NCBI GenBank assembly: GCA_030710605.1
Contig: CP092864.1
Coordinates: 139,481,418 to 139,545,417 of the forward strand
DNA: 64,000 nt
Source of the DNA: Cordylochernes scorpioides
Taxonomy: Eukaryota
Direction of reading: 5' to 3'
Shown here: one piece after another, positions 15,001-63,572 of the stretch
Layout of the letters: every line of letters starts with the position of its first letter
Numbering within the stretch: the first letter of the stretch is position 1
Translations under genes and position numbers: made by a program
Notes under the pieces: generated by a model
The model's input: only the letters and a program-made list of their open reading frames with translations
What the model was told of the DNA's origin: nothing
Database searches by the model: none

Positions 15001-15526
15001 GAGGCAGACTTACTTGAAGGAGCAACAAGAAGCCAGGGCTGAGTTTGAAGCTAGAGAGTTAAGGATCTTTGAAACAGGGGATCTAGCTTTGGTAAAGAGA
15101 ATGCATGAGACGAAAGGACGTCACAAATTTGAGCCAAGGTATAGAGGACCTTATGAGGTACTACAAAGGACAGGCGACACTGTCTATCTTTTGAAGGATT
15201 TGGAGACGGGGCACTTGGACAAGATTCACATAGACAGAATGAAGGCCTATCATGCCCCAGTAAAGACTTACCCTACGGGGGACGGAAACACACAAGAACA
15301 AATAGATAGTATCACTGATGATGAGGATCACTGGGTACATCCAACGTATCCCATATATTCCCATAGAACTGTAGAACCAGTGGAACCACGAGAGACAGCA
15401 ACCTTAAGGAACCCGCCTGAGGTAGTAAATAGGGCAATTGGTGGCAATGTTGACGGCCCTGGAATACGTCGTTCAACCAGGGTCAAGAGACCCACTGATT
15501 GTAAATCATGCCCAGGTTGCCATTGA
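12011..15526 (+). CDS. pol: Pol polyprotein: aspartic protease (ILDSGSEANIV), reverse transcriptase (YIDDVIVYS), RNase H, integrase (HHCC zinc finger, DDE core, GPYEVL C-terminal module)
   Basis: 1171-aa uninterrupted ORF. The domain order PR-RT-RH-IN is diagnostic of Ty3/gypsy (Metaviridae). Confidence 0.9.
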   Translation: MLRVRRARAFHPRLPAEAEKKLGPACLKAGGGFAASLPAINVYILNKGRSLDEKCLKFILDSGSEANIVNIDNLNLCTEGLDKPTYHKGISGKSLRSLGSEVLEIGAVVNGKPIREIRTTFEYCHMGEIGIDGILGLPGFRALKLHLSYDGSIRSDYERKEDPTKSAFLSSLQTIEMSPQPPRIPLNEIHTGHDIFRAFSHCFCNDIKDMGNGSTITAPKLRMLTSKPVYRRQYPIPNKLVSKVKALVDELEEVGIVEGSTSLWNSPLFPVAKTDGSVRITMDLRMINEATEFFPFPIPRVEDNLRAFAGAKVFSTLDLTSGFFQIHIPESDRDYFTFSLPWGRYRFTRLPQGAKNSAQVFQWAMNLVLGDLLFKCVRLYIDDVIVYSDSHEQHVADLAAVLERLSKFGLKAKYGKSYLFRDSVEYLGHVIDQNGIKPMWDNVAALRNLKRPHNIKAVRSLLGTVNYYRRFIPNAGEVLAPLSNLLRKGHRFAWGVIEQSAFETVKGILTSEPLLIHPTIGVPFILNTDASGIAVGACLQQEVNGTVRPIAYYSKRLTGPEIRYSTIEKEAYAVVLSLQHFKHLLAGGRVEVHTDHKPITYNKGSDYKNARLSRWAEIIQDFNVTFIYVPGKENTIADFLSRFPCEDDSNLPQDRRVVATVVRDRRPPLLNSNQIWEGLLQEKGWAPVMDKLTKLKPNSTERYNGREYRLLDKYLVTKNERGTWVKVVPTGFRETVISYHHDIATGGHFGVRKVMRRLKGDYYWPGMRTQVRKYIRRCESCQLSNQGVAKAASAPHFRPEKPFEHLALDFIGPLEITPRGYSSILTIVDLFTKFPILIPTKDQCANTVIRALLERIITTFGVPKTILSDRGSAFMSCVFKGVCKAMGVGAVNTTAWRPQSNGAVERLNRTVIESLRRCTAGNNWDTTLPMVALAIRTTVHSSTGFTPAKLVFGHEIRLPQPFQEGELNPVCEDSITEMAAFYERELVEEVERVREVVRQTYLKEQQEARAEFEARELRIFETGDLALVKRMHETKGRHKFEPRYRGPYEVLQRTGDTVYLLKDLETGHLDKIHIDRMKAYHAPVKTYPTGDGNTQEQIDSITDDEDHWVHPTYPIYSHRTVEPVEPRETATLRNPPEVVNRAIGGNVDGPGIRRSTRVKRPTDCKSCPGCH
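12068..12074 (+). promoter_or_regulatory. -1 programmed ribosomal frameshift slippery heptamer A_AAA_AAC at the gag/pol overlap
   Basis: pol (12011-15526) is in the -1 frame relative to gag. The canonical X_XXY_YYZ heptamer sits 1 nt before the gag stop, and a GC-rich region follows. Confidence 0.75.
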
Positions 15527-32389: not shown

Positions 32390-33664
32390 TCGACACTTTG
32401 CTTATAAAATCCTGAAAACTCAATATATTTTCTCCCGGTTTGTGGCAAACGCAAGCGTCGCCCTTGGCTTGGAGACCTGCCAATTTTCAAAAATCACGCG
32501 CCACAACAGCGCGAGCAGCGGCTGAAGTGAAGCCATTTTGCCCGTGCTTCGATTTCGTTAGTCACCGAAATGGAGGATCAACGAATTTGGATCAAGTTCT
32601 GTGTGAAAAACAGATTCAAAGGTGCCAAAATTTCTGGATGTTGCAAACAGCCTACGGGGATGCCGTTATGAGCCGGAAACGAGTTTTCAAGTGGTACAAG
32701 CGCTTCAAGGAGGGTCGGGAAGAGACCGCCGACAACGAACGTTCCGGGAGACCGTCCACATCAACCACGCCTGAAAAAGTGGACAAGGTGTTGGAACTGG
32801 TGCGTGAAGACCGACGAATAACTGTCAGGGAGGTCACCGAAGAAGCAGGGATATCATTCGGGTCGACTCAATCGATAATGAAGGACATTTTGGGAGTGAG
32901 AAGACTCAACGCCGTTCTCGTTCCCAAAGATTTGACTTTTGATAAAAAGAACGCCCAGAAAGAAACGGCCAGTCTCAATCTTGAAGCGGCAACCGACGAC
33001 CCCGAATTGCTGAAGAGGGTCATTACTGGAGACGAAACATGGATTTACGATTTTGATTAGGAAACTACCCAACAGACATCGGAGTGGCGCTTCAAAAATG
33101 AGCCGAGACCAAAGAAAGCGAGGAAGGCTCTCAGCAAAGTCAAGGTCATGTTGACGGTGTTCTTCGACTACCAGGGCATCGTTCATCATGAATTTCATCA
33201 ACAAGGCTCTACAATAACTGCTGACTCCTACCTGGAAGTTTTGAGGCGATTGAGGGAAGCGATCAGGCAGAAACGGCCGGAGCTGTGAAGGAGCAAGTCG
33301 TGGATCCTCCACCACGATAACGCGCCGGCGCACACAGCCCTCAAAATCTCGAAGTTCCTGCAGGACCACTCAACCTCTGTGTTCCCTCAATCCCCCTACA
33401 GTCCCGATTTGGCCCCCTGCGACTTCTTCCTTTTTGGAAAGCTAAAAAAAAGTTAAAGGGTCGGAAATTTCAGAGCATAGAAGAGATCAAAGTGGAATCG
33501 AAGGCCATGAAGGCGATCCCGAAAACAGACTACCAGAGGTGTTTTGTCGACTGGAAAAAAAGGTGGCTGAAGTGCATCGCGGCCAACGGGGACTACTTTG
33601 AAGGGGACAATTTGAATTTGGTAGAATAATAAAGTTTTTTTTTAAGTTATGAGCAAAGTGTCGA
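32390..33664 (+). mobile_element. mariner-like element (about 1.27 kb) nested in the LINE, with 18-bp terminal inverted repeats TCGACACTTTGCTTATAA / TTATGAGCAAAGTGTCGA
   Basis: Encodes a mariner transposase with an HTH region (RITVREVTEEAGISFGSTQSIMKDILGV), ITGDETWIYDFD, HHDNAPAH and a C-terminal SPDLAPCDFFLF..DYFEGD. The terminal repeats have one mismatch. Confidence 0.8.
32570..33625 (+). pseudogene. mariner transposase pseudogene (frameshift near 32600-32640; stops at 33058 and ~33287)
   Basis: The N-terminus MEDQRIWIKFCVKN is in a different frame from the 206-aa ORF at 32440-33060. Downstream segments need further frame changes. Confidence 0.8.
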
Positions 33665-34016: not shown

Positions 34017-35929
34017 TCCGTCTCACGGCCGTTTGGCAGGCGTAGGTATGGCTGCCGCTATCTGGTCACGTGAGATGTCGGCGAAAAAGAGCTGGTCCCA
34101 TACTCGAACTCCAAGGGGGTCACTTCAGCTTGGAAGTAAGCGATGGCTTCTCCCGAGCTTGGGCGCGGGCGCTCGTCACTATTTAAGCGCTCCAGAAGGA
34201 AACACCTAAGCTGGCTCCCGAAGATGGTGTTACTAGCGTCGTCGGTGAGGGTGAAAGGAGAGCAACGTCTGGCTCGGAGGCAACGCCCGAGGTCCGACAA
34301 GGAAGGATAGTCTCGGAGCGGAAAGTATCGTCCTCCAGTCTCCGCCTCAGGAAGTGGCTTGCTCCCTCTATGTATCCACCGCCGGACTCGACAACGTTTG
34401 GTGCGAGGGACCGTATCTCCGCGACCATATCTGCCTTGATCCTGGAGTCCATTGTTCTCATGATATCTGGAGTGAAATATTTGCTAGGTCTTGCGATATA
34501 TCATCGATGAACGTTTCCATTCGATCGACAAAAATTTCTAACCGTAGCAGCTTTCTGATTCAGGGACGTCTTGTAGGAGCTGGGTCTCCTACATGGATCA
34601 GGACGGCACGGTGGTATGACTAGGCATAGTCAATAATTTGGTACTGGGTGACGCGGTCATAAAAGTCTGATGGAAGTAGGATTCTGCCCAGACGACGTGC
34701 GTTGACCCGGCTTCTAATGGTAGCAACCCTGGTGTGCTCCAGTGCAGCATCGAAGGTGGCGGCCTCGACGAGATCGGCTTGGTCCAGGAGCTCCGCGAGG
34801 GCTTCTGCTAAACAGAATGCCTGCTCCTTTGTCGAATCTTCGGATATGTTCAGGTACCAAGGATCCACGCACCTTCTTCACAGTCAAAGATGCGATGACT
34901 CGGAGCTGGCGGCATCGCTCTTCAGGAGCATGAGAGACGTGGGCGTTGACACACATGATGGAGTAACACCGGACGATGTGGTCGATTACAGCAATCTTGC
35001 CAGGCCATAGGATCTGATGCCGGTGAACAACGACCCCGGCTGCGTAGACGCAGGCGATGCCTGGTCCGACAGCGGTCATTGCAGGTCAAACAATGACGGC
35101 GCTGTAGCCCTGGCAGAGGTCCCCTACGTCATCCAGGGACATGTCATCGTTTCCTGCAGGAAGCAGATGTCGATCTCATGCTCCTTGAGAAAATAGTATA
35201 GCTTGATTCTCCTGCGAAGAGCGGCGACCCCGCGTGTGTTCAGGGTTGCAACACGGAAGCTAATTTCGGCTGCCGAACAGAGTTTCAAGCGCGTGAAAGA
35301 TTCTACAGGGTGTTGCTGGTGTCCCCTGTAAGAGCCATAAGCGCCGTGGCTAAAGTGTCGATGGCCTGTTTCTGCTGGACGTTGGAGTTGGCCAGAAGTA
35401 TGTCCATGATGCCGTTGTTAGTAATAGCTTGAAGGAGTTGTTCTCTCTCCACAAGCCCAGTTGCTGGACGCTGGTGATGGTCGCAGAGGCTTTGTCATTC
35501 GTCATAAGAGCGTCCATTTGCCGCTGCGCCAAAGTCCGCTTCTTTTGTGAAGGAGGAAGTTTCTGGGATTCATTTGTTATGCTTGTATTCACAATAATTT
35601 CTGGAGGATCTGCGACGGCTGTAGCGGTGGAAGCTGCTAGTGTTGACTTGGGAGACTTGAGGGAAGGAGGTAAGTACTCCAGCACAAGAGCAACTTATCC
35701 TCTAAGCCTGTCCATTGCGGGCAGTTGGCACGCTTGTGCCCTTGCCTATGACAAAGGGAGCAATGGATCCCATTGGTCATGAAGAAGGGTATGGCTACCC
35801 CCTTAACCTTAATATACATCCGGGCAGGAATCTGGGAAAGCTTCACTCCATCATTCAGAGTAATGAAGGCTTCCTGTCATTTTTAACACAGAAATATACC
35901 AACGCAACAACCTGAAAGTTCATATTTTA

Positions 35930-36425
35930 TCTATATATATATATAAATGAATGTATGTGTCTGTCTGTCCTTTATGCCTGACCAAACCACTCATTGGAAC
36001 GCCGTGAAACTTTGGGAAGTTATTTAGTATAGTACTGGGAAGGTTTCTAGCAAATAAATTTTTTGAAATAACTTTTCGCCTAAAAATTCTAAATTAATAT
36101 GCCTAAATATTCTAATTCATCTGTTATAATTCAACAATCTGCTCTAAATATTATCATGATGATACGATGATTTTGTAATGTAGAAAATTAGGAAAGACAA
36201 AATTCAGGATGACACGGTAATTTATTTGAGACAAGAATAATGATACAATTCCAAGGCAAGATACTATTCCTTTAACTTCCAATTACCGAGGGAACCAATT
36301 AATATTGATTTTATTCAACTTATCGAGTATTTTTCAAGGGACCGGGAATGTTCACTTTATTGAGAGATTCGTTAGACAAACCTTTACTCTGGTAAAACCC
36401 GGGCGAAGCCAGGTACGTCCACTAG
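35930..36425 (+). mobile_element. Non-autonomous Helitron-like element (5' TCTATATATATATATAAATGAATG ... 3' CCCGGGCGAAGCCAGGTACGTCCACTAG, followed by T)
   Basis: 496-bp element. An inverted near-identical copy lies at 56410-56905. It starts TC, ends CTAG, has a GC-rich subterminal palindrome and sits between A and T. Confidence 0.7.
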
Positions 36426-45421: not shown

Positions 45422-46372
45422 TCAAACACGAAATCTCACAGGCGGTCTCCTCGCTCGAGGTGGGTTCCGCCTTAGGACAGGACCCTCCTCTTTCAAGGCC
45501 TCGGGGTCCAGCGAGCGAAGAGGCTCCAATGACTTTCCATCGTCTGTATCACTCTGAACCTCTGAATCTTGATCCGACCGCTGGCTAGTTAGTCCTGGCG
45601 ACAGCGACTCCATATAACCTCTGTCTCGTACAACCTCCGAGATTATGGCACTGGGACCTGCTCCTCTTGAGTGCTCGGGTTGACGCTCTCCATCTCCACT
45701 CTCATCTTCCTCACCATTCCTCCACCTTTTTCTAATTTGATCCCTGTGATAGGCCTTTACCTGTCCGTGGATCAAAATGGTGTAGACTCTAGTTCCCTTC
45801 TTGCCCACAATTTTTCCTGGGATCCATTTATCACCACCTCTAAAGTTTTTACACCACACTAAATCATCTATCTGGAATTCTTCCAAATGGGTTCGCCGAT
45901 CATACTTCATTTGCCTGGCTTGCTGGTCCCTAACTCTAGATGCCAAGCTGGGATGTATCAACGATACTCTGGTTCGAAGCGCACGCCCAATAAAGAGCTC
46001 TGATGGAGTCTTTCCCGTTGTCACATGCGGGGTGCTTCGATATGCCAGAAGAACTTTTGATAAGGTGTCTTGAATGGTATCCCCAATTTTCCTTTTATTT
46101 TTATCCAGGGCAGTCTTAATTGTTCTAACCGCTCTTTCAGCCAAGCCATTACTTTGCGGGTGGTACGCCGGGATCAATGTTTGTTTAATTCCATTTCCTT
46201 CCAGAAAACCTTTCATTTCACTACCAGTAAACTGAGGTCCATTATCAGATACAAGTTCCTCCGGTAGACCATAGGAAGAAAAAAGTCGCCGTAGTTGCTC
46301 AATGGTTTTGCGTGTGGTGGTCTCTCTCATTGGGATGGCTTCGATCCACTTTGAATGACTATCTACTACTAT
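45422..46372 (-). CDS. pol: Integrase catalytic core and C-terminus, in the same frame as the upstream Gag-Pol ORF and separated from it only by one TGA (46373-46375)
   Basis: Reading through the TGA gives ...HIDFANKENINL*IVVDSHSKWIEAIPMRETT..., which is the expected integrase D-region. The rest contains SDNGPQFTG and HPQSNGLAER (DDE core). Confidence 0.85.
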   Translation of the reverse strand: MVVDSHSKWIEAIPMRETTTRKTIEQLRRLFSSYGLPEELVSDNGPQFTGSEMKGFLEGNGIKQTLIPAYHPQSNGLAERAVRTIKTALDKNKRKIGDTIQDTLSKVLLAYRSTPHVTTGKTPSELFIGRALRTRVSLIHPSLASRVRDQQARQMKYDRRTHLEEFQIDDLVWCKNFRGGDKWIPGKIVGKKGTRVYTILIHGQVKAYHRDQIRKRWRNGEEDESGDGERQPEHSRGAGPSAIISEVVRDRGYMESLSPGLTSQRSDQDSEVQSDTDDGKSLEPLRSLDPEALKEEGPVLRRNPPRARRPPVRFRV

Positions 46373-49300
46373 TCATAAATTAATGTTTTCCTTATTTGCA
46401 AAATCAATGTGAATTCTTTGCCAAGGTCTGGTTGACCATTTCCAGGGTTGCCATTTTCCTTTATTTGGCCCATCCTGGGATTGCTGACAGCTTCTGCACT
46501 TATTTACCAAAAACTCGATTTGGGTATCTAGATTTGGCCACCAAAAATGTGATCTTGCTACAGCCTTCATTTTGTTCATACCAGAATGAGTCTCATGAAG
46601 ACAGTTCAACATTTTTATTCTGAGAGATGGTGGAATGACAACTCTCATTCCCCAAACCAAACACTCCCCATCTACAGTTAGCTCAAGTTTCCTTTGAAAA
46701 TAAGGTCTGAGGTGATCAGCCACCTTTTCAGGCCAGCCTTGCTGAGTATAAAATTTGGCCAATGAGAGCACTTCGTCTTTTTCAGTTTCTGTGGCAATTT
46801 CCTCTGCTGTGATCGGCAATTCTTCCACATAGGATAAAGCATAGACATTATTTAATCTTGGAATTTCTTCACAGCCCACAGGAAAACGTGACAGAAGATC
46901 TGCATTCCCATGGTCTTGAGTTCTTCGAAATTTAATATCGTAAGTATAAGCTGACAAAATAAGCGCCCAACGCTGCAATCTTGAAGTAGATAAGGTGGGG
47001 ATTCCTGATCTTGAGCCCAAAATGGTCACCAATGGCTTATGGTCTGTAATAAGAATAAATTTTCTTCCATAAATAAATTGATGAAACTTGGTAACTCCAT
47101 AAATAATGGCTAGAGCCTCCTTCTCAATCTGAGAATAATTTTGTTCTGCTACCGATAAAGTCCGTGAGGCAAACATAATCGGTCTCTCCTGGCCTTCTAT
47201 AATATGTGACAACACAGCGCCCACTCCAATCTGCGATGCATCAGTGGCCAAACACAATGGCAAAGTCGCATCATAAGGGACTAGCACCCTCTCAGAGGTA
47301 ATGCTATTCTTGCACTTGTCAATGGCCTCTCCACATTCCTTTGTCCAAACCCAAGGACGTTTTTTGTGAAGAAGCTCATGAAGAGGCTTCAAAAGCTCTG
47401 GCAAATTGGGTATGAACTTCCCATAAAAGTTTACCAAACCAAGAAATGACCTTAATTCAGAGATATTCGTAGGCGTTTTGGCCTTCTGTATTGCTTGTAC
47501 CTTATGATCTAAAGGTCTGATGCCCTCTTCCGTGACAAGATGTCCTAAATATTCAATTTCTTTTTGCAAAAATAGGCATTTTTCTTTCTTTAGTTTGATA
47601 TTATACTTCGCCAAGCGAGCAAATATAGTCTTCAACAACGCCAGATGTTCTTCAATTGATGCTGTGGCTATAAGGACATCATCAATATAACAAATTACGC
47701 CTCCTATACCTGACAAAACCCTATCCATTACAGATTGAAAATAACTGGGCGCATTTGCCAATCCAAATGGCATTCTCTTAAACCTGAAAAGCCCTTTATG
47801 AGTATTTATCGTTAGTAACGGTCGGGTGCCTGGGTCCACCTCTAATTGCAGATAAGCGTTCCTCAAGTCCAATTTAGAAAAGTATTTTCCCTTGGCCAAT
47901 GTGGAGAATAAATCTTGCTGTGTGGGAAGGGGATAGGCCGCAGTGTCCAAATATTTATTTAGAGTTACCTTGAAGTCGCAGCAAATTCTGATCTCTTTAT
48001 TTTTCTTCGGCACTACAACCACTGGAGTGGCCCATTTACTGCTCGCCACCTCACATAGATAACCCTTAGCCACCATTTTGTCTAATGCTTCAGTAACTGC
48101 TGGCCTAATGGCGAAAGGCACCGGACGAGCCTTATGGAAAATTGGATTCACATCACACATGTTTACTGAAAATGTGAAACCTTTTATTGGTTCGGTTGTC
48201 TCCACAAATAGGGCTTGATTTTCCTTCAAAATTTCCTCAATGGTAATTTCCACAGGCATATGTTTTACCGCGAAACAGCCCAATTTCAATCTATTTATCC
48301 ATTCTCTTCCCATCAAAGCCCTCTTTTCTCCTTTCACCACCAACGCTCTAAGTTTGTAAGTAATATCTTGACACTCCACTTTGACATTGATTTTACCCAG
48401 AATGGGTACCACGGTACCATCATAAGTTCTTACAATAATACTCGCTTTTTCCAATTTCAAGTGTTGAAGACTATTTTTAAAATCCTTTTCTGATATCAGT
48501 GTTAGACCACTACCCGTATCCATTTCAAATTTAATAAAGTTTCCTTCTACTTTTAACTCCATCAGATAGGGAGGGTCACTTGAGGCAAAATTAATTTTAT
48601 ACTCAGGTATCGTCACGCTTATAATTTTCTGGACATACTCTTCCTCCTCTTCTTGGTCTCCTATCTGATGTATATTTCCCGGCTGATTCTGATGTTGCCT
48701 TAGATTTCTTCTACTGCTCCAACATATTGAGGCAATGTGTCCTTTTTTATTACACTTAAAGCATATCGCCTCCTTAAATCTACATAGTTCTTTATGCTGT
48801 TTACCACAATGTTTACATTTGCCATTCTGGAAATTTGAATCAACCTTGCGTTCCATCCTCAACTTATCTACACAATCTTCACCCTGCTCCAAGTGAAATA
48901 ATTTTGTATTTTTCTCGGCCGCTTCCATAGATAATGCTATCTCAATTACTTTAGCTAAAGAAATGTCGCCCTCCGACAAAATTCTATTTTGTATTTTGGC
49001 ATTATATAATCCACAAACCATTTTATCACGTAAAGAATCCTCCAGAAAATTTCCAAAGTTGCATGAGGAAGCCAAACGCTTAATTTCCACCAAGTAATCC
49101 GAGATGCTTTCTTCCTTTAATTGCATTCTTTTAAAAAAAATGAACCTCTCTACTACAATTGAGCGCTTTGGAGAGAAGTGCCTTTTCAAGATATCTATTA
49201 GGTTATCAAAAGTTTTATCTTTAGGTAGAATAGGACTGCACAAATTCTTCAAAACACCATATGTTTTACTTCCCATGAGGGTTAGGAGATAAGCCTTTTT

Positions 49301-49408
49301 CTTCTCATCCCCTGCCTCCTCCAATATGAGAAACTGTTCCAATCGTTCATAAAACGTTTCAAAAGTTTCAGTTTCCTCATTATATTCCTTAAATTGGTAA
49401 CTAGCCAT
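46373..49408 (-). CDS. gag-pol: Fused Gag-Pol: gag with two CCHC knuckles (CKHCGKQHKELC, CFKCNKKGHIASIC), protease (FEMDTGSGLT), RT (CYIDDVLIA), RNase H (LATDASQIGVGAVL), integrase zinc finger (HETHSG..CRSCQ)
   Basis: 1011-aa ORF. gag and pol are in a single frame, with no frameshift. Confidence 0.9.
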   Translation of the reverse strand: MASYQFKEYNEETETFETFYERLEQFLILEEAGDEKKKAYLLTLMGSKTYGVLKNLCSPILPKDKTFDNLIDILKRHFSPKRSIVVERFIFFKRMQLKEESISDYLVEIKRLASSCNFGNFLEDSLRDKMVCGLYNAKIQNRILSEGDISLAKVIEIALSMEAAEKNTKLFHLEQGEDCVDKLRMERKVDSNFQNGKCKHCGKQHKELCRFKEAICFKCNKKGHIASICWSSRRNLRQHQNQPGNIHQIGDQEEEEEYVQKIISVTIPEYKINFASSDPPYLMELKVEGNFIKFEMDTGSGLTLISEKDFKNSLQHLKLEKASIIVRTYDGTVVPILGKINVKVECQDITYKLRALVVKGEKRALMGREWINRLKLGCFAVKHMPVEITIEEILKENQALFVETTEPIKGFTFSVNMCDVNPIFHKARPVPFAIRPAVTEALDKMVAKGYLCEVASSKWATPVVVVPKKNKEIRICCDFKVTLNKYLDTAAYPLPTQQDLFSTLAKGKYFSKLDLRNAYLQLEVDPGTRPLLTINTHKGLFRFKRMPFGLANAPSYFQSVMDRVLSGIGGVICYIDDVLIATASIEEHLALLKTIFARLAKYNIKLKKEKCLFLQKEIEYLGHLVTEEGIRPLDHKVQAIQKAKTPTNISELRSFLGLVNFYGKFIPNLPELLKPLHELLHKKRPWVWTKECGEAIDKCKNSITSERVLVPYDATLPLCLATDASQIGVGAVLSHIIEGQERPIMFASRTLSVAEQNYSQIEKEALAIIYGVTKFHQFIYGRKFILITDHKPLVTILGSRSGIPTLSTSRLQRWALILSAYTYDIKFRRTQDHGNADLLSRFPVGCEEIPRLNNVYALSYVEELPITAEEIATETEKDEVLSLAKFYTQQGWPEKVADHLRPYFQRKLELTVDGECLVWGMRVVIPPSLRIKMLNCLHETHSGMNKMKAVARSHFWWPNLDTQIEFLVNKCRSCQQSQDGPNKGKWQPWKWSTRPWQRIHIDFANKENINL

Positions 49409-52492: not shown

Positions 52493-54004
52493 CTAGACGA
52501 ATGGCCCGGGCAACGCCCGGGGTTTACCCGAGTGCGAATATATTTTAAAAACGTTGTCTTGGGTGGTCGCTATAGACAGGGTGGTCTGTATAGACAGGTG
52601 TATGTATCACACTGCTGATAACAGGGTTGCCTGAAGTGACCGCTATAGACAGGGTGGTCTGTATAGACAGGTGATTGTAACACACTGATGATAACAGGGT
52701 TGCCTAAAGTGACCGCTATAGACAGGGTGGTCTGTATAGACAGGTGGATGTATCACACAGCTGATAACAGGGTTGTCTAGAGTGGCCGCTATAGACAGGT
52801 GTATGTATCACACAGCTGATAACAGGGTTGTCTAGAGTGGTCGCCATAGACAGGGTGGTCTGTATAGACAGGTGTATGTATCACACAGCTGATAACAGGG
52901 TTGTCTAGAGTGGTCGCTATAGACAGGGTGGTCTGTATAGACAGGTGAATGTATCACACAGCAGATAACAGGGTTGTCTAGAGTGGCCGCTATAGACAGG
53001 GTGGTCTGTATAGACAGGTGGATGTATCACACAGCTGATACCAGGGTTGTCTAGAGTGGCCGCTATAGACAGAGTGGTCTGTATAGACAGGTGGATGTAA
53101 CACACTGCTGATAACAGGGTTGTCTAGAGTGGCCGCAATAGACAGGGTGGTCTGTATAGACAGGTGTATGTATCACACTGCTGATAACAGGGTTGCCTAA
53201 AGTGACCGCTATAGACAGGGTGGTCTGTATAGACAGGTGAATGTAACACACTGATGATAACAGGGTTGCCTAAAGTGACCGTTATAGACAGGGTGGTCTG
53301 TATAGACAGGTGGATGTATCACACAGCTGATAACAGGGTTGTCTAGAGTGGCCCCTATAGACAGGTGTATGTATCACACAGCTGATAACAGGGTTATCTA
53401 GAATGGCCGCTATATACAGGGTGGTCTGTATAGACAGGTGGATGTAACACACTGCTGATAACAGGGTTGTCTAGAGTGGTCGCTATAGACAGGGTGGTCT
53501 GTATAGACAGGTGTATGTATCACACTGCTGATAACAGGGTTGCCTAAAGTGACCGCTATAGACAGGGTGGTCTGTATAGACAGGTGAATGTAACACACTG
53601 ATGATAACAGGGTTGCCTAAAGTGACCGCTATAGACAGGGTGGTCTGTATAGACAGGTGAATGTAACACACTGATGATAACAGGGTTGCCTAAGGTGACC
53701 GCTATAGACAGGGTGGTCTGTATAGACAGGTGGATGTAGCACACTGCTGATAACAGGGGTGTCTAGAGTGGCCGCTATAGACAGGGTGGTCTGTATAGAC
53801 AGGTGGATGTAACACACTGCTGATAACAGGGTTGTCTAGAATGGCCGCTATAGACAGGTGTATGTATCACACAGCTGATAACAGGGTTGTCTAGAGGGGG
53901 GCAGGGAGGTCACGTGTTCATCCGGCAGCCAATGGGCGCGCATTCTATCCGTGAGCTTCAGACATACAGACAAACAGACAGAATAAGGCAAATATATAAG
54001 TAGA
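52493..54004 (-). mobile_element. Helitron-like non-autonomous element carrying a 73-bp tandem array and a G-tract, CACGTG, CCAAT module
   Basis: On + it begins with a|CTAGACGAATGGCCCGGGCAACGCCCGGG (the reverse complement of a 3' hairpin plus CTAG). On + it ends with ...CAAATATATAAGTAGA (5' TCTACTTATATATT on -). Near the 5' end is GGGGGGCAGGGAGGTCACGTG..CCGGCAGCCAATGGGCGCGC. Confidence 0.65.
52560..53890. repeat. Minisatellite: about 18 tandem units of ~73 bp (CGCTATAGACAGGGTGGTCTGTATAGACAGGTGNATGTANCACACNGNTGATAACAGGGTTGNCTNNAGTGNC), with some 55-bp short units
   Basis: Direct reading. The minus-strand 62-aa MCYIHLSIQTTLSIA ORFs are repeat artifacts. Confidence 0.9.
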
Positions 54005-54280: not shown

Positions 54281-55296
54281 TTATAAGAAATGGCCATATT
54301 TGGGTATTTATTCCATTCACACAAAAGCAAACGGTGACAGAATTAAGAATTGATTAATGACTCTGATACTTGTATTAATTAATGCTTATAGGTCTGTAGA
54401 GGTGCATACTTCAAGAAATTACATCGAGCAAAGCTCTTCAGCAAATATGGTTTTATATCAAAGCTATATGAGCTATAAATTAAATAACAACAGCATTGAT
54501 ACCATCTTCAGAGAAAAGTATTAAAATGGACTCTTCTTTCTTCTTCTTTCTTATCTCAAAGCCATGATAATCATGGTGGGTAGTTAGAGACTAAAATGGA
54601 CTAAAACTTAGATTCTAAAAAATTTTTGAAATTGGTAACAATTTTGTTATCGAAGGTAGCCTTTAATTATTCAATTGAGTTTTTCAATAATTTGAAATTT
54701 CTTTACATTGCAAGAAACTCTCATTGTCCCAGATTAGCATTGGACATTACTAGAAATTTAAACATACCACTTTTAGTTTTGGCTTTGCATACCACCAAAG
54801 GTGGCCTTTTATTTTTAGACCTCCTCTGGTAAATCTGCAGCCTGTTAAATAGGAAATTGATTGTACAGTTGAATATTGATTTGAAAAAAATGTGTCAGGT
54901 AACCAAAAGGTTTCGGTCTTAAATCATATCTGGATCTATATTTTATTAGTTACCCTACTGGAACTGTATTCAGGATCAATACACAATCAGTCTTAAATAC
55001 AAGGTGGTCTAAAATTCAGAGTAGGTCTTAAAACAAGAAATAACTGAATAAACTCACTCACTTAAGCAAGCTAACAAAATATTTTGTCTAAAAAAATGGT
55101 GGTTTTGAAATTAGCACTGTGTAATAAGTGAGAGCATTATGTGATGTGGAAAAAGATAAAGCACAATTTGGATTATAGATTATAGCTACAAGAAAATAAG
55201 ACCTAATCCAAATAAATTAATAATATGTGACATTTCAGTAACATCATTGTTACCATCATCAGACAAAAGAATAAATGATTTATTCTTTATTATATA

Positions 55297-55654
55297 CTAG
55301 ACGGGTAACCCGGGCTTCGCCCCGGGATTGACCCGTGTGCATATCTACCCGAGCGATATATATTTAGATAAGATTTTTTAAAATAATTTTTTGTTATTAG
55401 CATTATCTATTTGTTTGCATCAGCATAATTTAATCTAATCTTTGATAGAGGGCGCTGTTCGTGAGCTAAGTAGAATAATTTGAATATACAGTTTTAATAA
55501 TTGATTTATATATTTTTTAAAATAGCCTATCGTCTTCCCCGTATTTTTTTACCTATGTATGGAAATTTTGGTTTGAATTAGTGAACTACTGCGAATTTGT
55601 ATACCGGACATAAAAACAAACAAACATACAAACATTCATTTATATATATATAGA
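55297..55654 (-). mobile_element. Helitron-like non-autonomous element (358 bp), nearly identical to 60111-60466
   Basis: On + it runs a|CTAGACGGGTAACCCGGGCTTCGCCCCGGGATTGACCCG ... CATTCATTTATATATATATAGA. On - this is 5' TCTATATATATATAAATGAATG and 3' hairpin plus CTAG. Confidence 0.7.
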
Positions 55655-55830
55655 TATAACAGCATTGTTACCATCATCAAACAAAAGAATAAATGATTTA
55701 TTCTTTTACTATATATATAACAGCATTGTTACCATCATCAGACAAAAGAATAAATGATTTATTCTTTATTATATATATAACAGCATTGTTACCATCATCA
55801 GACAAAAGAATAAATGATTTATTCTTTATT
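55655..55830 (+). repeat. Tandem ~60-bp units x3 (TATAACAGCATTGTTACCATCATCAGACAAAAGAATAAATGATTTATTCTTTATTATATA). A fourth unit sits at 55240-55296 on the other side of the Helitron, and an inverted copy at 56139-56235
   Basis: Direct reading. The Helitron 55297-55654 interrupts the array. Confidence 0.8.
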
Positions 55831-55833
55831 ATA

Positions 55834-56138
55834 GGGGGGTTGGTGGAAGGATGGTCTAAACCGTTGGTTTACGACCGCTACGACCCGGGCTCGATTCCCA
55901 CATTGGGCACTTTTTTCTGATTTAAAAAAAATGCTCCAATGGCCCCTGATTCTTGTAAAAGTCCAACCCCACCAGCGAGGGCAAGTAACCAAACGGGGAT
56001 CTGGGACATTTGTAAGTGCAAAGTCGAACCGCTTTTCACATGTGTAGACATGTGGTGCACTTACAATAAAAGCAGTCGCCTTCTACCCACCATGATTATT
56101 ATGGCCTGTACCACGTGTACTAGGAATAAGCAAAAAAA
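55834..56138 (+). mobile_element. tRNA-derived SINE, copy 2
   Basis: About 93% identical to 44194-44503, with the same GGGGGGTYGGTGGAAGG head, GGGYTCGATYCC box B and an A-rich tail. Confidence 0.75.
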
Positions 56139-56409
56139 TAAATCATTTATTATTTTGTCTGATAATGGTAACAACGCTGTTAATGAAATGTCACACGCTA
56201 TTAATTTATTTGGATTAGGTCTTATTTTCAGTAATGTGTAAAAATTACACTCATGGACAAATTAAGGAAGTTCTACCTCCAAGCACGAGTTTCTTACTTT
56301 ATTTTATATTTTTTTCTCTAGCTTTCGGGTTTTACAAACCCTTCTACAGGAGTATGTGATAGGAAATAATTCAAGATACATTCATGCTTCAAAGCCATTT
56401 TATTCATTA

Positions 56410-56905
56410 CTAGCGGACATACCCGGCTTCACCCGGGTTTTACCCGAGTAAAAGTTTGTCTAACGAATCTCTCGATAAAGTGAACATTTTTTCCCGGTCC
56501 CTTTAAAAATACTCGATAAGTTGAATAAAATCAATATTAATTGGTTCCCTCGGTAATTGGAAGTTAAAGGAATAGTATCTTGACTTGGAATTGTATCATT
56601 ATTCTTGTCTCAAATAAATTGCCGTGTCATCCTGAATTTTGTCTTTCCTAATTTTCTACATTACAAAATCATCGTATCATCATGATAATATTTAGAGCAG
56701 ATTGTTGAATTATAACAGATAAATTAGAATATTTATCTTGATTATTTTTAGGCGAAAAGTTATTTCAAAAATTTTATTTGCTAGAAACCTTCCCAGTACT
56801 ATACTAAATACCTTCCCAAAGTTTCATGGCATTCCAATGAGTGGTTTGGTCAGGCATAAAGGACAGACAGACACACATACATTCTCATTTTTATATATAT
56901 AAAGA
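56410..56905 (-). mobile_element. Helitron-like element, inverted copy of 35930-36425
   Basis: Its reverse complement aligns end-to-end with 35930-36425. CTAG at 56410-56413; 5' TCTTTATATATATAAAAATGAGAATG at 56905. Confidence 0.7.
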
Positions 56906-56940
56906 TTCAATACTTGTATCCCAAAAAAAGGAGGACTTAC

Positions 56941-57081
56941 ATCAGAGTTGAGGTTCCCTGTGTAGCCCATGAACAGTCTGGGGGCCTCCGCCAACAATCC
57001 GACCATGAGGAAGAACATGTTCAGCAGGCGGTTGAAGTCATCCAGAAAGGGATACTGCCACAGGATTAAAACTTTCCCAGT
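56941..57081 (-). CDS. Putative internal coding exon of the membrane protein gene (acceptor CTGCAG|, donor |GTAAGT)
   Basis: Translation TGKVLILWQYPFLDDFNRLLNMFFLMVGLLAEAPRLFMGYTGNLNSD (141 nt, open). A consensus GTAAGT donor sits at 56935-56940 (reverse complement). The exon lies between a Helitron and the piggyBac. Confidence 0.35.
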
Positions 57082-57140
57082 CTGCAGTTAGTAATCCTGA
57101 AAATTTCAATGAGCCAAGTAAGCAGAGGCAATGATTTTAA

Positions 57141-59285
57141 CCCTTTAAGCGCCGAGGTAACGATCCATCGTTACCCTATAACGTCACCAGGAGCGCCGGG
57201 GTACCGATCTATCGTTACTTCCTTGTAGGGCCCCTCGTGGGGGAGGGGGTGGTGGCTGGCTATTTTTATCACCTCCCTTCTCACTTCTGGGCTTGTCTCT
57301 ACACGTTAGCTGTGTTTTTATCTCCTTTGTCTTGCGATTTCCTTTTTTTATTTTTAATTTTTTAAAAATGGCTTCCGGTTCAGAATGCTCTGCATTTTCT
57401 GAGGACACTGAAGTTTATTCTTTGTCTTCTGAGTTTGAAGAAAGTGTTGAAGACACTTTTGAAGATGAATTTTCTGATGAAGAAGTGGATGAAAACCAGC
57501 CAAGTCCTTGGGTAAGAGTTTATACTCCATTTTCCACATCTAAAACGTTGACTTTTGGAGAAGTTTGTGGCCCACAGCACCTTCCCCCCTCTATTATCCG
57601 GCCTATTGAATACTTTTTGTTATTCATAACAATTAATTTGATGAAGGAAATTGTGGCTTTTACCAATAAATGTGCCCAAACTTTATTGGCAAGCAATAGG
57701 GACAAATTGCCTCTATTTTCTAGGAAGCTGGCCTGGAAGGACACTACCTTGGATGAGATGATGGCCTTTATTGGAGTCATCTTCAATATGGGCAATGTGA
57801 AGAAGAACCAAATCAGGGACTATTGGAGCAAGAATGAACTTTTAGAGACGCCCTGGTTTGGTAAAGTTATGTCTAGAGGGAGATTTGAGTTGCTCTACAG
57901 CTGCTTTTCTCTGATTGATGACTCCAACCTGGTTCCAAGTTCTCATCCTGATTACAACCCAACTGCAAGATTTGAGAAGCTCATAGAGCATGTGAACAAC
58001 AAGTTTATATATTATTATAAGCCTACTCAAAATCTTACAGTTGATGAGAGCTTGGTGTGCCTAAAAAACCGAACTCGTCTTAGACAATATATGCCCCAAA
58101 AGCACCATGGTCGATTTGGAGTCAAACTGTGGATGCTTTGTGAATCTAAAACTGGCTATTGTCTGAGAATGAAGCCATATAAAGGGAAATTATCTCCAAT
58201 TATCAAGTCCCTTTCCTATGATGTTCCAATGAATCTGCTCCAGGAATCCAGTTTACTTGGAAAAGGTTATCATTTGATAACTGACAACTTTTTCACCAGC
58301 ATCAACCTAGCCAAGGACTTACTGGACAGTCATACTTATTTGACTGGTACTATAAGAACTAATAGGAAAGGACTTCCTAAAACCTTAAAAAGTGCAAAAT
58401 TAGGTGTTGATGAATCCCTTTATATGGTAAATAATAATCTACTGGCCCTGGCTTACAAAGAAAAGAAGAGCAAACCTCCAGTGAAGTTTCTCTCAACATT
58501 TTGTGATGCTTCTTCTGGCAAAAAGAAGGTGTCAGACCAAAGAGACTACCCACAGATGAAAATATGCTATGATAGCTACATGGGAGGGGTAGATCTCAAT
58601 GATCAAATGTTGTATACATATATGGATGAAAGAAAAGGAAGAAAATTTTATAGAAAGGTGATCCTCAACATCTTCCACAGGGCTTTCCTAAACTCCTTCA
58701 TCCTATATGAACAGCATACCAAAGACAACCCCAAGCTTTCTAGAAGGGCTTTTAACTATTCAGTAATAAATGAATTAGTTAAAAATCACTTGAAACCTCC
58801 AGTACTGCCTTCAACAAGCCAGGAAGTACTCGAAAAACTTCCAGAAAAGAGAGAGAGTAGATGTGTGGAGTGTACAAAAGAAGGCCTGAAGCGGAGGTCT
58901 AGAACCATATGTTCAAAGTGCAAGAGAGGCTTGCATCCAGTCTGTGCTTTTAAACACAAGTGTTAGCTTTGTAAATAGCCTTGTATATATCTAAAATTCC
59001 TTTTTATATTTGTAAAACCTTATTTTGAAAAATTCAAGTCGATTATTCAATTAATTATAATTAACCCCCAATTAAAAAATTAAATACTCACTCCAGTATA
59101 ATAAAATCAGAGTGTTGTGTTGAGAGAGGAGTCTGGATTATATTACACTTTACAGAACACTTCTATCTATCATATTTATTTATTTATAACATTTTTTACT
59201 TAACAACTACTTGATCATCAGTTTAGGCTTAATTAGTGTGGTCCTGATAGTGATAGTTAGCATTCGGGCCCTAGAGCTTAAAGGG
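57141..59285 (+). mobile_element. piggyBac-family DNA transposon (2145 bp) with TTAA target-site duplications and terminal inverted repeats CCCTTTAAGC / GCTTAAAGGG
   Basis: TTAA at 57137-57140 and 59286-59289. The terminal 10 bp are perfectly inverted, with partial matches beyond. A single intact transposase ORF lies inside. Confidence 0.85.
57368..58966 (+). CDS. piggyBac transposase (about 533 aa from MASGSECS), intact ORF with a DDD catalytic region and a C-terminal Cys-rich domain (CVECTKEG..CSKCKRGLHPVCAFKHKC)
   Basis: Conserved piggyBac blocks: DESLVCLKNRTRLRQYMPQKHHGRFGVKLWMLCESKTGYCLRMKPYKGK, GYHLITDNFFTS, LTGTIRTNRKGLP and YDSYMGGVDLNDQ. There are no internal stops. Confidence 0.9.
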   Translation: MASGSECSAFSEDTEVYSLSSEFEESVEDTFEDEFSDEEVDENQPSPWVRVYTPFSTSKTLTFGEVCGPQHLPPSIIRPIEYFLLFITINLMKEIVAFTNKCAQTLLASNRDKLPLFSRKLAWKDTTLDEMMAFIGVIFNMGNVKKNQIRDYWSKNELLETPWFGKVMSRGRFELLYSCFSLIDDSNLVPSSHPDYNPTARFEKLIEHVNNKFIYYYKPTQNLTVDESLVCLKNRTRLRQYMPQKHHGRFGVKLWMLCESKTGYCLRMKPYKGKLSPIIKSLSYDVPMNLLQESSLLGKGYHLITDNFFTSINLAKDLLDSHTYLTGTIRTNRKGLPKTLKSAKLGVDESLYMVNNNLLALAYKEKKSKPPVKFLSTFCDASSGKKKVSDQRDYPQMKICYDSYMGGVDLNDQMLYTYMDERKGRKFYRKVILNIFHRAFLNSFILYEQHTKDNPKLSRRAFNYSVINELVKNHLKPPVLPSTSQEVLEKLPEKRESRCVECTKEGLKRRSRTICSKCKRGLHPVCAFKHKC

Positions 59286-60110
59286 TTAAACCAGGGCAAA
59301 TAAGACTTTACCACCCTGATTAAAAACTCATCTATGATAAGATACAATTTGGATTATAGATCAGAAACCAAGATAACAGAACCAAATACAAATAGTATGT
59401 GAAGTTTCAGGAAAAAGGGTTGTTACCATCATCAGAAAAAAGTTTTCTTGATTGGCTCTGTCTGCCTTGCTAGCAACATCTTTTCTTTTTTAATCGTAAC
59501 TCAATCATATTAGGCCTGTAGAGCTTGAGATTTATATTGTCTGCTGGGGATGAGTACAGCTCATCAATGGATGAGTCAATGCTATGCTGGCAACAACAGC
59601 ACCCTCTATGGTCACCTCAAGCTCCACAAGGTGGGTTGGTCCAGATAGACATTTACTTATTTGGATTTGGTCTTGTTACCGTATGTTAAAAACTTGTCTA
59701 TTACATAAATATTTCAACTACAAGACTTTTCATTAAAACTTGTAATAAAAGCTTCCATTTGATGCTAAAAAAATGCACTCGCAAGACAAGTTGACTCCTA
59801 AGAGATAGGTTAAATAAAAAATTGGTTATAAAAACATAAAACTATTCTTTCTTTGGAAAGTACAATCCTCTGCAATACATATAAATAATAAACAAAATGG
59901 CTTCATAGGATCAGTTTCTTATTTTATTTTATATCCCTCTCAAGCTTTCGTGTATCACAAACCCTTCTACAGGACTCCTGAAGGCAGCTTTGAGATACCA
60001 GAAAGCTTTAGAATAATATAAAATGTAAGAAATTCATCCTATGAAGCTCAAAGTGATATGACCAAATCTAAATAAATAATGTCACACTATTTATGTGTGT
60101 TTATAATCTA

Positions 60111-60466
60111 CTAGACGGGTGACCCGGGCTTCGCCCCGGGATTGACCCGTGTGCATATCTACCTGAGTGATATATATTAAGATAATATTTTTTTAAATAA
60201 TTGTTTGTTATTAGCATTATCTATTTGTTTGCATCAGCATAATTTAATCTAATCTTTGTTAGAGGGCGCTGTTCGTGAGCTAAGTAGAATAATTTGAATA
60301 TATAGTTTTAATAATTGATTTATATATTTTTTAAAATAGCCTATCGTCTACCCCGTATTTTTTTACCTATGTATGGAAATTTTGGTTTGAATTAGTGAAC
60401 TACTGAGAATTTGTATACCGGACATACAAACAAACATACAAACATTGATTTTTATATATATATAGA
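60111..60466 (-). mobile_element. Helitron-like element (356 bp), near-identical copy of 55297-55654
   Basis: The same termini and internal sequence (GATAGAGGGCGCTGTTCGTGAGCTAAGTAGAATAATTTG...). Confidence 0.7.
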
Positions 60467-60840
60467 AGATAATCCAAGTTATGTGCTTTATCATCCTATG
60501 AAGCTATTTTGTTTATTTATACTATTCTTTCTTATGCAAAATCAACGATGCTCTTCATATAGGATTTTGAACACATTTAGTATTTAGGGATTTAAAAAAA
60601 TTAGACATGTTAAACAGGGTCAGATGCTTAAGAAAGCTAAATTAATGATGGAACAAACAATCCCTACTAAACTCCAAAGACAGGTGACTGCAGATTTTAC
60701 TGTATTTAGTTCTCCTTATTGGTCTCTGTGTCACATCATTAAAAGTTGCCTTACTTGAGAGCAAAAAAGTGTCCAATGATGGCTGACCTCCATTTTGTAG
60801 TTGGCCCTACAGTCAAACCTCTCACTTATGGATAAGATCT

Positions 60841-61207
60841 CTTCTTCTTCTTTCTTATCTCCACTCAATCATTAGGGTATCAAGTTGTGACCCTTGATGG
60901 TATTTGACAACCATCATGACTGGGTGAAGTAGAATGCGTCTGCCTTTGTCATTAAGACTGGGAGCACTACTCAGTGGCAGGCCGACTTAGCTCCAAAAGA
61001 AATGGCCGCCTCTGACATGAGGAACAGACGCCATGTGCAGCCGCTCCTAACATGGAGTACAAACGCTGCTCATCCTGTATTCCTAGATTAGGAGCCCTTA
61101 CAGGGTACTATCAGCCGGGCCAGCTGAGCCCAGGTTTTTTAGTGAGCTTGTTACTGCTCCCTCTCCTCCTTTTTCATCCGGGCTTGGGACCGGCAAAGGC
61201 GGAGTTA
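60841..61207 (-). mobile_element. SINE-like D-family repeat, copy 2
   Basis: Matches 49985-50357. Confidence 0.5.
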
Positions 61208-61879
61208 TGGATAAGATAATTGTTGCAAAGACAAAGTGTCCTTTAGGAAGAGGTATACTCTTACTGGAGAGTTGCTAATTAGTAAAAATGGTAATTTTGG
61301 CGATGAAAATTGTCCTTTGTAGAGTGATAGATTTCTCTAGTAAGAGTGCCTTGTCACAGAGGTTCTACTGTATAGGAAGAGAAAGCAGAGACAAGCTTGG
61401 GTCAGCATCAACAAATGTGTTTGGCTCTATGGTTTCCATTTTTGGTTACAATGTATAAATTTGACATGGGACTTATCCCTCCCAATATAAATAAATAATA
61501 TCACACATCAGTCTTTGCATTTTATGGGGGAGTATTTTCTTATAATTCAAGAATTATACAACAACAAAAATCCTTTATTAAAGACACTTGTACCATACAG
61601 GATTCTCCTAAATTGGGTAAACAGAAGTAAACATAACATTCATCTAGAGAAAGTGGAGATTAACATCGACCTTTCTTCAAGTTGGATCCATCATCTGTGT
61701 TGAGCCTATTGTCTGTGTTGTTTCCCAGAATTTGTGAAAAGCTAATGCATTAGGTTTGTTTTTCATTACTTTTTCCATTAGAGAACATATGCGGAATTGT
61801 TTTCATAACCAATCTTTTGCCGAGAATTTCTCTGTCTTCCTCCAATACCAGAAAATAAAAAGTGTAGTGGGGAAAGTCA

Positions 61880-62097
61880 TGGTTAACCCGGCATTGCGCG
61901 CGCCGGGTGAAAATTACCCATGGCAACATTTGAATGGAGAATTAACCAATAAAAAATCGGTTGCCGGAGATGTGGTTTCGTTTAGCTTCCTGACTCATCA
62001 ATTAATCTAAAGTTTTGGTTTCACATTTTGACAGCTCCCACTGAAATTCCATCTATTGTCACTGTCGGGTAAAAATTACCCGGCGCGCGCACTCACG
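61880..62097. mobile_element. MITE-like element (~215 bp) with GC-rich terminal repeats GGGTAAAAATTACCCGGCGCGCGC
   Basis: 61885-61915 (CCGGCATTGCGCGCGCCGGGTGAAAATTACCC) is inverted at 62056-62095. A solo terminus of the same family sits at 63788-63850. Confidence 0.55.
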
Positions 62098-62890: not shown

Positions 62891-63572
62891 CTAGCCGAAT
62901 GACCCGGGCAACGCCCGGGTTTTACCCTATTAAATGTACCCTGTTTCACCCGTGGTCTCTGTTTTTTGGAATATTTTTCCCGATATAATTTTGTATCTGA
63001 TAATCAAACTTGATACAGCAAAATTTTTAAAAAGCAAAATTTTTAAAATAGCCTATCGTCTTCCCAGTATTCTTTTACCTATGTATGGAAATTTTGGTTT
63101 GAATTAGTGAACTACTGAGAATTTGTAGACGAATGCCCCGCGCAACTGTCCAACTGGGAGCGCCCCGCGCCGTCAAAATCGTCACGCGTTCTAGAGGGCG
63201 CTGTTCGTGAGCTCAACCGGCCGTCAGCCGGGAGATCTCATTTACTCGGCGGGGGGGGGGGGGGGGGGGTGCAGGGGGAAGGGAAGTCACGTGCTGCGCC
63301 GGCAGCCAATCGTCGCGCGCCGCCATCGCCCGCCTGAGTGTTCTAGAGGGCGCTGCTCGTGAGCTAAGTTGAATAATTTGAATATATAGTTTTAATAAAT
63401 GATTTATATATATTTTAAAATAGCCTATCGTCATCCTCGTTATTTTTTACCTATGTATGGAAATTTTGGTTTGAATTAGTGATCTACTGCGAATTTGTAT
63501 AGGAGTCATACAAACAAAGACACAGACAAACAAACATACAAACATACAAACATTCATTTTTATATATATAGA
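62891..63572 (-). mobile_element. Cluster of rearranged Helitron-family fragments (a 3' CTAG/hairpin end at 62891, partial bodies at 63040-63240 and 63330-63572, each with a G(22), CACGTG, CCAAT module)
   Basis: 62891 a|CTAGCCGAATGACCCGGGCAACGCCCGGG. 63046-63125 and 63420-63572 match the 55297-55654 body. The 5' end TCTATATATATAAAAATGAATG (on -) is at 63572. Confidence 0.5.

Follow-up and report, generated by a model that had tools for sequence, protein, structure and literature searches.

The two structurally characterised transposases with which the element described here can be compared are those of piggyBac from T. ni (IFP2; structures 6x67 and 6x68) and of piggyBat from Myotis lucifugus (structure 9c0f). 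The element lies at positions 57141 to 59285 of a 64,000-nucleotide stretch of the Cordylochernes scorpioides genome (contig CP092864.1, positions 139,481,418 to 139,545,417 of the forward strand), a stretch referred to below, at its full length, as the window. Like T. ni piggyBac, it has a TTAA target-site duplication, short CCC-initiated ends with asymmetric subterminal repeats, a single intronless open reading frame (ORF) encoding a protein with an acidic N-terminus, a DDE_Tnp_1_7 core with a DDD catalytic triad, and a C-terminal Cys/His domain of the cross-brace type; the predicted fold of its transposase (AlphaFold2) matches the T. ni fold with a template modelling (TM) score of 0.64-0.71. 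The structure-based identity between the two transposases is, however, only about 26%, and the window element is the more compact, with a length of 2.1 kb against 2.5 kb and a transposase of 532 aa, shorter in its N-terminal domain, against 594 aa. The inverted end of T. ni piggyBac is CCCTAGAAAGATA (13 bp), whereas that of the window element is CCCTTTAAGC (10 bp). PiggyBat is the best structural match (E = 7e-27), with a sequence score (1.6e-41) similar to that of T. ni piggyBac, and its Cys-rich domain, C-x2-C-x11/12-C-x2-C-x4-H, is spaced much like that of the window transposase. Its identity to the latter is about 25%, its host is a mammal and its activity is experimentally established.

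The window element is very probably a structurally intact, autonomous-type transposon of the piggyBac superfamily, belonging to a young multi-copy family of C. scorpioides and inserted at a TTAA in a repeat-rich region, where it probably lies antisense within an intron of a TMEM17-like gene. All features that define the superfamily and can be computed are present. The understanding of piggyBac biology is left unchanged by the element, which is an ordinary member of a well-known kind.

Two recent surveys single out CCCTT or CCCTTT as the best-conserved 5' motif in the inverted ends of piggyBac elements, and the CCCTT(T) of the window end agrees with this consensus. The surveys call a piggyBac intact when it has inverted ends, target duplications and an ORF of 500 aa or more, and the window element has all three. 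Intact elements are reported from more than 80 hymenopteran species, and 85 intact types from 69 small animal genomes, of which several are those of spiders. A preliminary description of the present locus had called intact piggyBacs uncommon, which is an overstatement in the light of these surveys, since the many intact elements listed there mean that such elements are no longer rare finds. Hymenopteran piggyBacs with CCCTTT ends and ORFs of 500-768 aa include members active in human cells, and some hymenopteran elements have been picked for transposition assays in HeLa cells beside hyperactive piggyBac. A literature search returned no paper on a pseudoscorpion piggyBac.

Ends and transposase of the element

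The element spans 2,145 bp and is bordered by TTAA on each side. Its ends are made up of the following features:

57137 to 57140, no strand: left TTAA target-site duplication (direct reading; within a 15-nt inverted repeat and an exact 14-mer match)
57141 to 57150, + strand: left terminal inverted repeat, CCCTTTAAGC (direct reading, repeat finder)
59276 to 59285, - strand: right terminal inverted repeat, reading GCTTAAAGGG on the + strand (direct reading, repeat finder)
59286 to 59289, no strand: right TTAA target-site duplication (direct reading, repeat finder)

The two terminal repeats are exact reverse complements (10/10) and, extended by the TTAA on the outside and one further base, form the perfect 15-nt inverted repeat TTTAACCCTTTAAGC / GCTTAAAGGGTTAAA returned by the repeat finder. 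As is typical of the superfamily, the ends are thus short, start with 5'-CCC (commonly CCCTT) and are flanked by a duplicated TTAA. Past the 10 perfect bases the ends drift apart (13 of 17 positions match), and further in there is essentially no similarity between them. Such asymmetry is usual for piggyBac.

The possibility has to be weighed that these ends are a chance inverted repeat framing a transposase fragment, with the true boundaries elsewhere, as the boundaries were drawn from the window sequence. The 14-mer TTAACCCTTTAAGC occurs at two sites in the window, one on each strand, and these are the two ends of the element. Perfect 14-nt inverted pairs starting with TTAA and placed 1.5-4 kb apart number one in the whole 64-kb window, namely the ends of the element, compared to 0.02 on average, and never more than 1, in 100 first-order Markov simulations of the window; the observed pair is far beyond chance. 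The end also opens with the family-typical CCCTTT, and neither flank bears any relation to the element: to its left, another repeat, which is dispersed, stops at 56912 and is followed by a unique, exon-like segment, and to its right other repeat debris is found. Against this evidence, ends arisen by chance are very improbable.

Between the ends, the coding features are:

57368 to 58966, + strand: transposase ORF, 532 aa and stop (ORF reading, profile and structure comparison)
58043 to 58045, + strand: catalytic Asp D226 (LTVDES), opposite D268 of T. ni piggyBac, 35/35
58283 to 58285, + strand: catalytic Asp D306 (LITDNFFTS), opposite D346 of T. ni piggyBac, 35/35
58592 to 58594, + strand: catalytic Asp D409 (GGVDLND), opposite D447 of T. 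ni piggyBac, 35/35
58862 to 58963, + strand: C-terminal Cys-rich domain (column conservation in a 35-sequence alignment)

The ORF, which is the sole long one of the element, begins with an ATG at 57368, continues without a break to the stop codon at 58964-58966 and comprises 533 codons, the stop included. Its product is laid out as an acidic, Ser/Thr-rich N-terminal segment (aa 1-48), a DDE_Tnp_1_7 core (aa 79-444) and a Cys-rich C-terminus (aa 499-532). The first of these contains 17 D+E and 12 S+T residues and not a single K or R, a composition reminiscent of the N-terminal domain in other piggyBac transposases. A Pfam search of the protein returned one family only, DDE_Tnp_1_7 (PF13843; E = 3.7e-71, 240.7 bits), covering positions 2-349 of the 349 in the profile, and among all PDB sequences only two proteins match, T. 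ni piggyBac (6x67/6x68; E = 6.7e-42) and piggyBat (9c0f; E = 1.6e-41).

In the HMMER alignment to 6x67 the motifs LTVDES, LITDNFFTS and GGVDLND stand opposite LTIDEQ, ITCDNWFTS and GGVDTLD, so that D226, D306 and D409 correspond to D268, D346 and D447, the catalytic residues of the T. ni enzyme. Conservation was read from an alignment with 34 relatives at 29-55% identity, counts being given out of 35 sequences. All three Asp residues of the DDD triad are invariant (35/35), and D412, shortly after D409, is kept in 34 of the 35. The Cys-rich pattern reads C499-x2-C502-x12-C515-x2-C518-x4-H523-x2-C526-x3-H530-x-C532. Six of its ligand columns (C499, C502, C515, C518, C526 and H530) are kept in 34-35 of the 35 sequences, while column 523 holds H or C and the final residue is C in 23 of 35. 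It is this column conservation, together with the alignment to the piggyBat C-terminus, that identifies the cysteine-rich (zinc-binding) domain characteristic of the superfamily; Pfam yields only weak, sub-threshold PHD-like matches for it.

The AlphaFold2 model, built from the 35-sequence alignment, has a mean predicted local distance difference test score (pLDDT) of 85.4 and a predicted TM score (pTM) of 0.78, and its low-confidence stretches are restricted to residues 1-42, 233-249 and 481-485. In a Foldseek comparison with the PDB the predicted fold is that of the solved piggyBac transposases, with piggyBat (9c0f, E = 7e-27) first and T. ni piggyBac (6x67, E = 7e-25) second, both at a probability of 1.00 and with TM scores of 0.64-0.72; the next match, Tn5 transposase, falls far behind. 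The preliminary description had proposed a complete element with TTAA duplications and 10-bp perfect inverted repeats, a full-length 533-codon transposase carrying all conserved piggyBac blocks, and a C-terminal Cys-rich domain, and had named the absence of a DDD triad on alignment as grounds for abandoning this view. All of these features were recovered at the positions given above, and the triad was found.

Family copies and relatives

The search for further genomic copies that had been recommended was successful at the protein level. At least 11 gene models with an 88-99% identical transposase were retrieved from the database, all of them from C. scorpioides (Arachnida, Pseudoscorpiones) and distributed over eight chromosome-scale scaffolds; it is thus in protein sequences only that the multiple copies at different sites, another hallmark of the superfamily, are seen. 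The models are chimeric: joined to the transposase are segments of other kinds (reverse-transcriptase, mariner, FERM, Kunitz and others), and the window contains none of these non-transposase parts. Substitutions set two models, P0002 and P0007, apart from the window copy. P0006 matches it exactly over 377 aa and has its downstream exons outside the window, and could represent the window locus itself if these remaining exons sit beyond the window end. From the absence of the other model parts from the window and the substitutions in P0002 and P0007 it follows that at least 10 other insertions exist.

Several of the copies are visibly decaying: P0009 carries a D226Y replacement at the first catalytic Asp, P0005 an internal deletion of 18 residues, P0008 one of about 100 residues, and P0004 several insertions and deletions. 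In the window copy, private amino-acid changes are absent from all 459 positions comparable in at least three copies. It departs from the majority at L116, K341 and F440 only, and these three residues are common to P0002, P0006 and P0007. The sharing of these residues, combined with the lack of private changes, is, judged from the protein sequences, the signature of a young subfamily. The element is also a sign that DNA transposons are active, or were so until very recently, in the large and repeat-rich genome of C. scorpioides.

A second family is found in the same genome. Its representative P0012 is 52% identical to the window transposase over 99% of the length and has the same start position, triad and Cys-rich pattern; it forms a separate lineage, and its gene model has a 25-aa gap in the core. 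Fragments of this family are P0041 and P0069.

Four of the public gene models (P0006, P0007, P0009 and P0010) begin at an out-of-frame ATG (57465) and regain the frame by splicing out a GT-AG 'intron' at 57512-57723. The segment removed in this way encodes about 70 conserved residues, stands opposite residues 119-170 of T. ni piggyBac and is modelled with a pLDDT above 90. As the segment is conserved and well modelled, the ORF is read as continuous and the intron as a probable prediction artefact. Exact-product look-ups found no record of the full-length 532-aa transposase as a gene product, and likewise nothing for P0002, P0006 and P0007. The C. scorpioides annotation would be worth correcting on this point, as the transposase is buried in chimeric 'host' models, some of them labelled ZKSCAN1, and the full-length protein is not represented.

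These labels bear on a rival reading, that of a domesticated host gene derived from piggyBac (PGBD-like), which the preliminary description had listed as a possible refutation. In its favour, the ORF is long and intact, and relatives do appear in public records as 'piggyBac transposable element-derived protein 4-like' or 'ZKSCAN1'. The names stem, however, from the automatic annotation of chimeric models. Moreover, the inverted ends and TTAA duplications are perfectly kept, the catalytic triad is intact, and instead of a single-copy gene there are many near-identical copies on different chromosomes (eight scaffolds), several of which are degenerate. The combination of intact ends and duplications, dispersed near-identical copies and a mixture of intact and degenerate members argues for a recently active transposon family and makes domestication extremely improbable.

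Outside Cordylochernes, the nearest relatives are 'PGBD4-like' piggyBacs with 38-45% identity over 88-100% of the length, found in Mytilus, in bees (Anthophora, Colletes) and in metagenome and Logan contigs. With an identity of at most 45%, the window family is, as judged from sequence comparison, distinct from these elements, and nothing among the database relatives, of which the closest outside the host reaches at most 45%, points to recent horizontal transfer. Two relatives at 39-40% protein identity (P0022 and P0015) could be followed to their DNA ends, which read TTAA followed by CCCTTTTAG; the sequence shared is TTAA followed by CCCTTT(T/A)AG. For P0022 (39% identity) two contigs are 99.7% identical from the TTAA onward and differ upstream of it, both starting with TTAA and CCCTTTTAGTGCC; the copies of this family extend over 463-3475 of contig L002 and 22-3030 of contig L003, which come from a European Nucleotide Archive (ENA) metagenome assembly and a Logan run. 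In the contig of P0015 (marine metagenome, 40% identity; L001, position 3951) an inverted TTAA with CCCTTTTAGCACGGAGG is located about 1.4 kb downstream of the ORF, and resembles the TTAA with CCCTTTAAGCGCCGAGG of the window end. The 30-nt left end of the window element itself had no match in a metagenome scan, and a scan of viral contigs revealed no relative of the element.

Subterminal repeats, probable mechanism and possible activity

The non-coding parts of the element contain two further features:

57148 to 57218, + strand: left subterminal region with two 27-nt direct repeats (repeat finder)
59100 to 59105, + strand: AATAAA, candidate polyadenylation signal, 134 nt past the stop codon (direct reading)

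The direct repeats (57148-57174 and 57192-57218) are 27 nt each and 89% identical, and within each of them lies the near-palindrome GTAACGATCCATCGTTAC. The half-site TAAC(G/T)ATC returns as an inverted copy 27 nt inward of the right tip. In the 64 kb of the window the motif TAMCKATC has four matches, a total no higher than chance, and it is their placement alone that is suggestive, three of the four being in the element ends (57158 and 57202 on the + strand, 59252 on the - strand). By analogy with T. ni piggyBac, the subterminal repeats are candidate binding sites for the Cys-rich domain of the transposase. Folded as single-stranded DNA, the left end shows no significant structure (z = -1.49).

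The steps by which the element would move can be drawn from the established biochemistry of the piggyBac family. The asymmetric ends would be bound by the 532-aa transposase, whose Cys-rich domain would probably make the contact at the GTAACGAT-type repeats of the subterminal regions. Cleavage of the ends by its RNase-H-like DDD site (D226/D306/D409) would then release the element by way of hairpin intermediates. Excision would restore a single TTAA at the donor site, for which the expected empty-site sequence at the window locus is ...GGCAATGATTTTAAACCAGGGCAAATAAG..., and integration would take place at another TTAA, which would be duplicated in the process.

Considering the integrity of its sequence and the youth of the family, there is an even chance that the window copy is transcribed and transposition-competent today. 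A number of points weigh against the view of a complete and mobile element given above. Its boundaries were set by analogy and from the inverted ends and TTAA duplications, rather than by copy-to-copy alignment. The perfect inverted repeat is just 10 bp long and the ends are otherwise unlike, which leaves the cis sequences needed for transposition undefined. In the Pfam search the Cys-rich domain falls short of the zinc-ribbon profile PF13842, the full 532-aa protein is nowhere modelled in the public annotation, which uses the cryptic intron at 57512-57723 instead, and the subfamily substitutions L116, K341 and F440 may affect function. Finally, the mobility of the window copy is inferred from sequence.

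Several of these points would equally suit a copy that is structurally intact and yet dead or silenced, whether by a subtle substitution, by missing cis sequences or by host silencing such as the piRNA pathway. The short perfect repeat with asymmetric ends, the three substitutions and the visible decay of other family members are all consistent with such a fate, which must be regarded as a serious possibility of somewhat less than even probability. It is opposed by the absence of private amino-acid changes over the 459 comparable positions and by the intactness of all catalytic and zinc-ligand residues. In addition, L116, K341 and F440 are common to at least three copies (P0002, P0006 and P0007, with P0006 possibly being the window locus), and if these are all separate insertions, the variant carrying them has itself been amplified.

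Should the element be active, it would add to the toolbox a divergent piggyBac, with an identity of about 25% to the two transposases of known structure and of at most 45% to any relative outside its host, and it might serve as an orthogonal vector or as a tool for arachnid transgenesis. The more far-reaching proposal, that this is an active and unusually compact piggyBac (2.1 kb, with a 532-aa transposase) of the chelicerate order Pseudoscorpiones, usable as a vector orthogonal to T. ni piggyBac and piggyBat, and that its insertion near the TMEM17-like exon is polymorphic in natural populations, is advanced tentatively and is less likely than not.

Insertion site and surrounding repeats

Left of the element, on the opposite strand, lies one putative coding segment:

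56941 to 57081, - strand: putative host exon of 47 codons, TMEM17-family-like (splice sites, translation, marginal Pfam match)

The preliminary description had placed an exon of a membrane protein gene here, about 60 bp from the element. The distance is right: 55 nt separate 57081 from the left TTAA, and the element itself begins after 59 nt. The borders of the segment are canonical (CAG/ACT with an AG acceptor, and G/GTAAGT as the donor), its sequence is unique in the window, and its translation, TGKVLILWQYPFLDDFNRLLNMFFLMVGLLAEAPRLFMGYTGNLNSD, has a marginal match to Pfam Transmemb_17 (PF09799) of 27.0 bits, the cut-off being 26, with E = 6.9e-6 over positions 21-62 of the 107 in the profile. 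Counterparts in databases and in the neighbourhood did not appear: the 47-aa peptide gave no candidate in a word-indexed protein search and nothing at E <= 0.001 in a HMMER scan of 1.84 billion representatives, and a Pfam scan of the three minus-strand frames over 54400-56940 and 59290-62000 detected no further Transmemb_17 segment, leaving the exon without a partner in 54400-62000. A TMEM17-like membrane protein exon at 56941-57081 is accordingly plausible, if weakly supported. If it is real, the element lies inside the intron upstream of this exon, in antisense orientation and 55 nt from the acceptor.

The surroundings are rich in repeats. A repeat of 313-321 bp at 56600-56912, which ends 28 bp from the donor of the putative exon, has a 92.5% identical inverted counterpart at 35923-36239. 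Another of about 300-370 bp, SINE- or MITE-like in appearance, occurs in direct orientation at 55286-55655, 60100-60469 and 63040-63553 with 87-98% identity, and a tail fragment related to it is located at about 56860-56910, directly downstream of the putative exon. Two 97-nt arms in inverted orientation (55192-55288 and 56133-56229) show 91% complementarity and have the look of a foldback or MITE-like structure. A 60-bp unit is present in three tandem copies (96% match) at 55644-55833, with an inverted partner some 300-400 bp off. Further to the left, at 52553-53895, lies a satellite array of about 18 units of 73 bp (periods 146, 219 and 493 bp; 85-93% match), which reads as long spurious ORFs on the minus strand.

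Other classes of transposable elements are also represented in the window. A retrotransposon of the Ty3/gypsy type at 11076-15526 on the + strand, situated in a GC-richer block, consists of a gag ORF (Retrotrans_gag, zf-CCHC) followed by an unbroken 1171-aa pol with reverse transcriptase (RT), RNase H, integrase and Tf2-type SH3 domains, and may also be intact. A second pol of the same type at 45422-49408 on the - strand is broken once in its frame, as is evident from its two ORFs, one of 1011 aa with protease, RT, RNase H and the integrase zinc domain, and a separate one of 302 aa with the rest of the integrase core. A mariner-like transposase remnant at 32440-33626 retains helix-turn-helix (HTH) domains of the Mos1 type and gives tblastn matches of 50-54% to the mariner-derived C-terminus of P0009.

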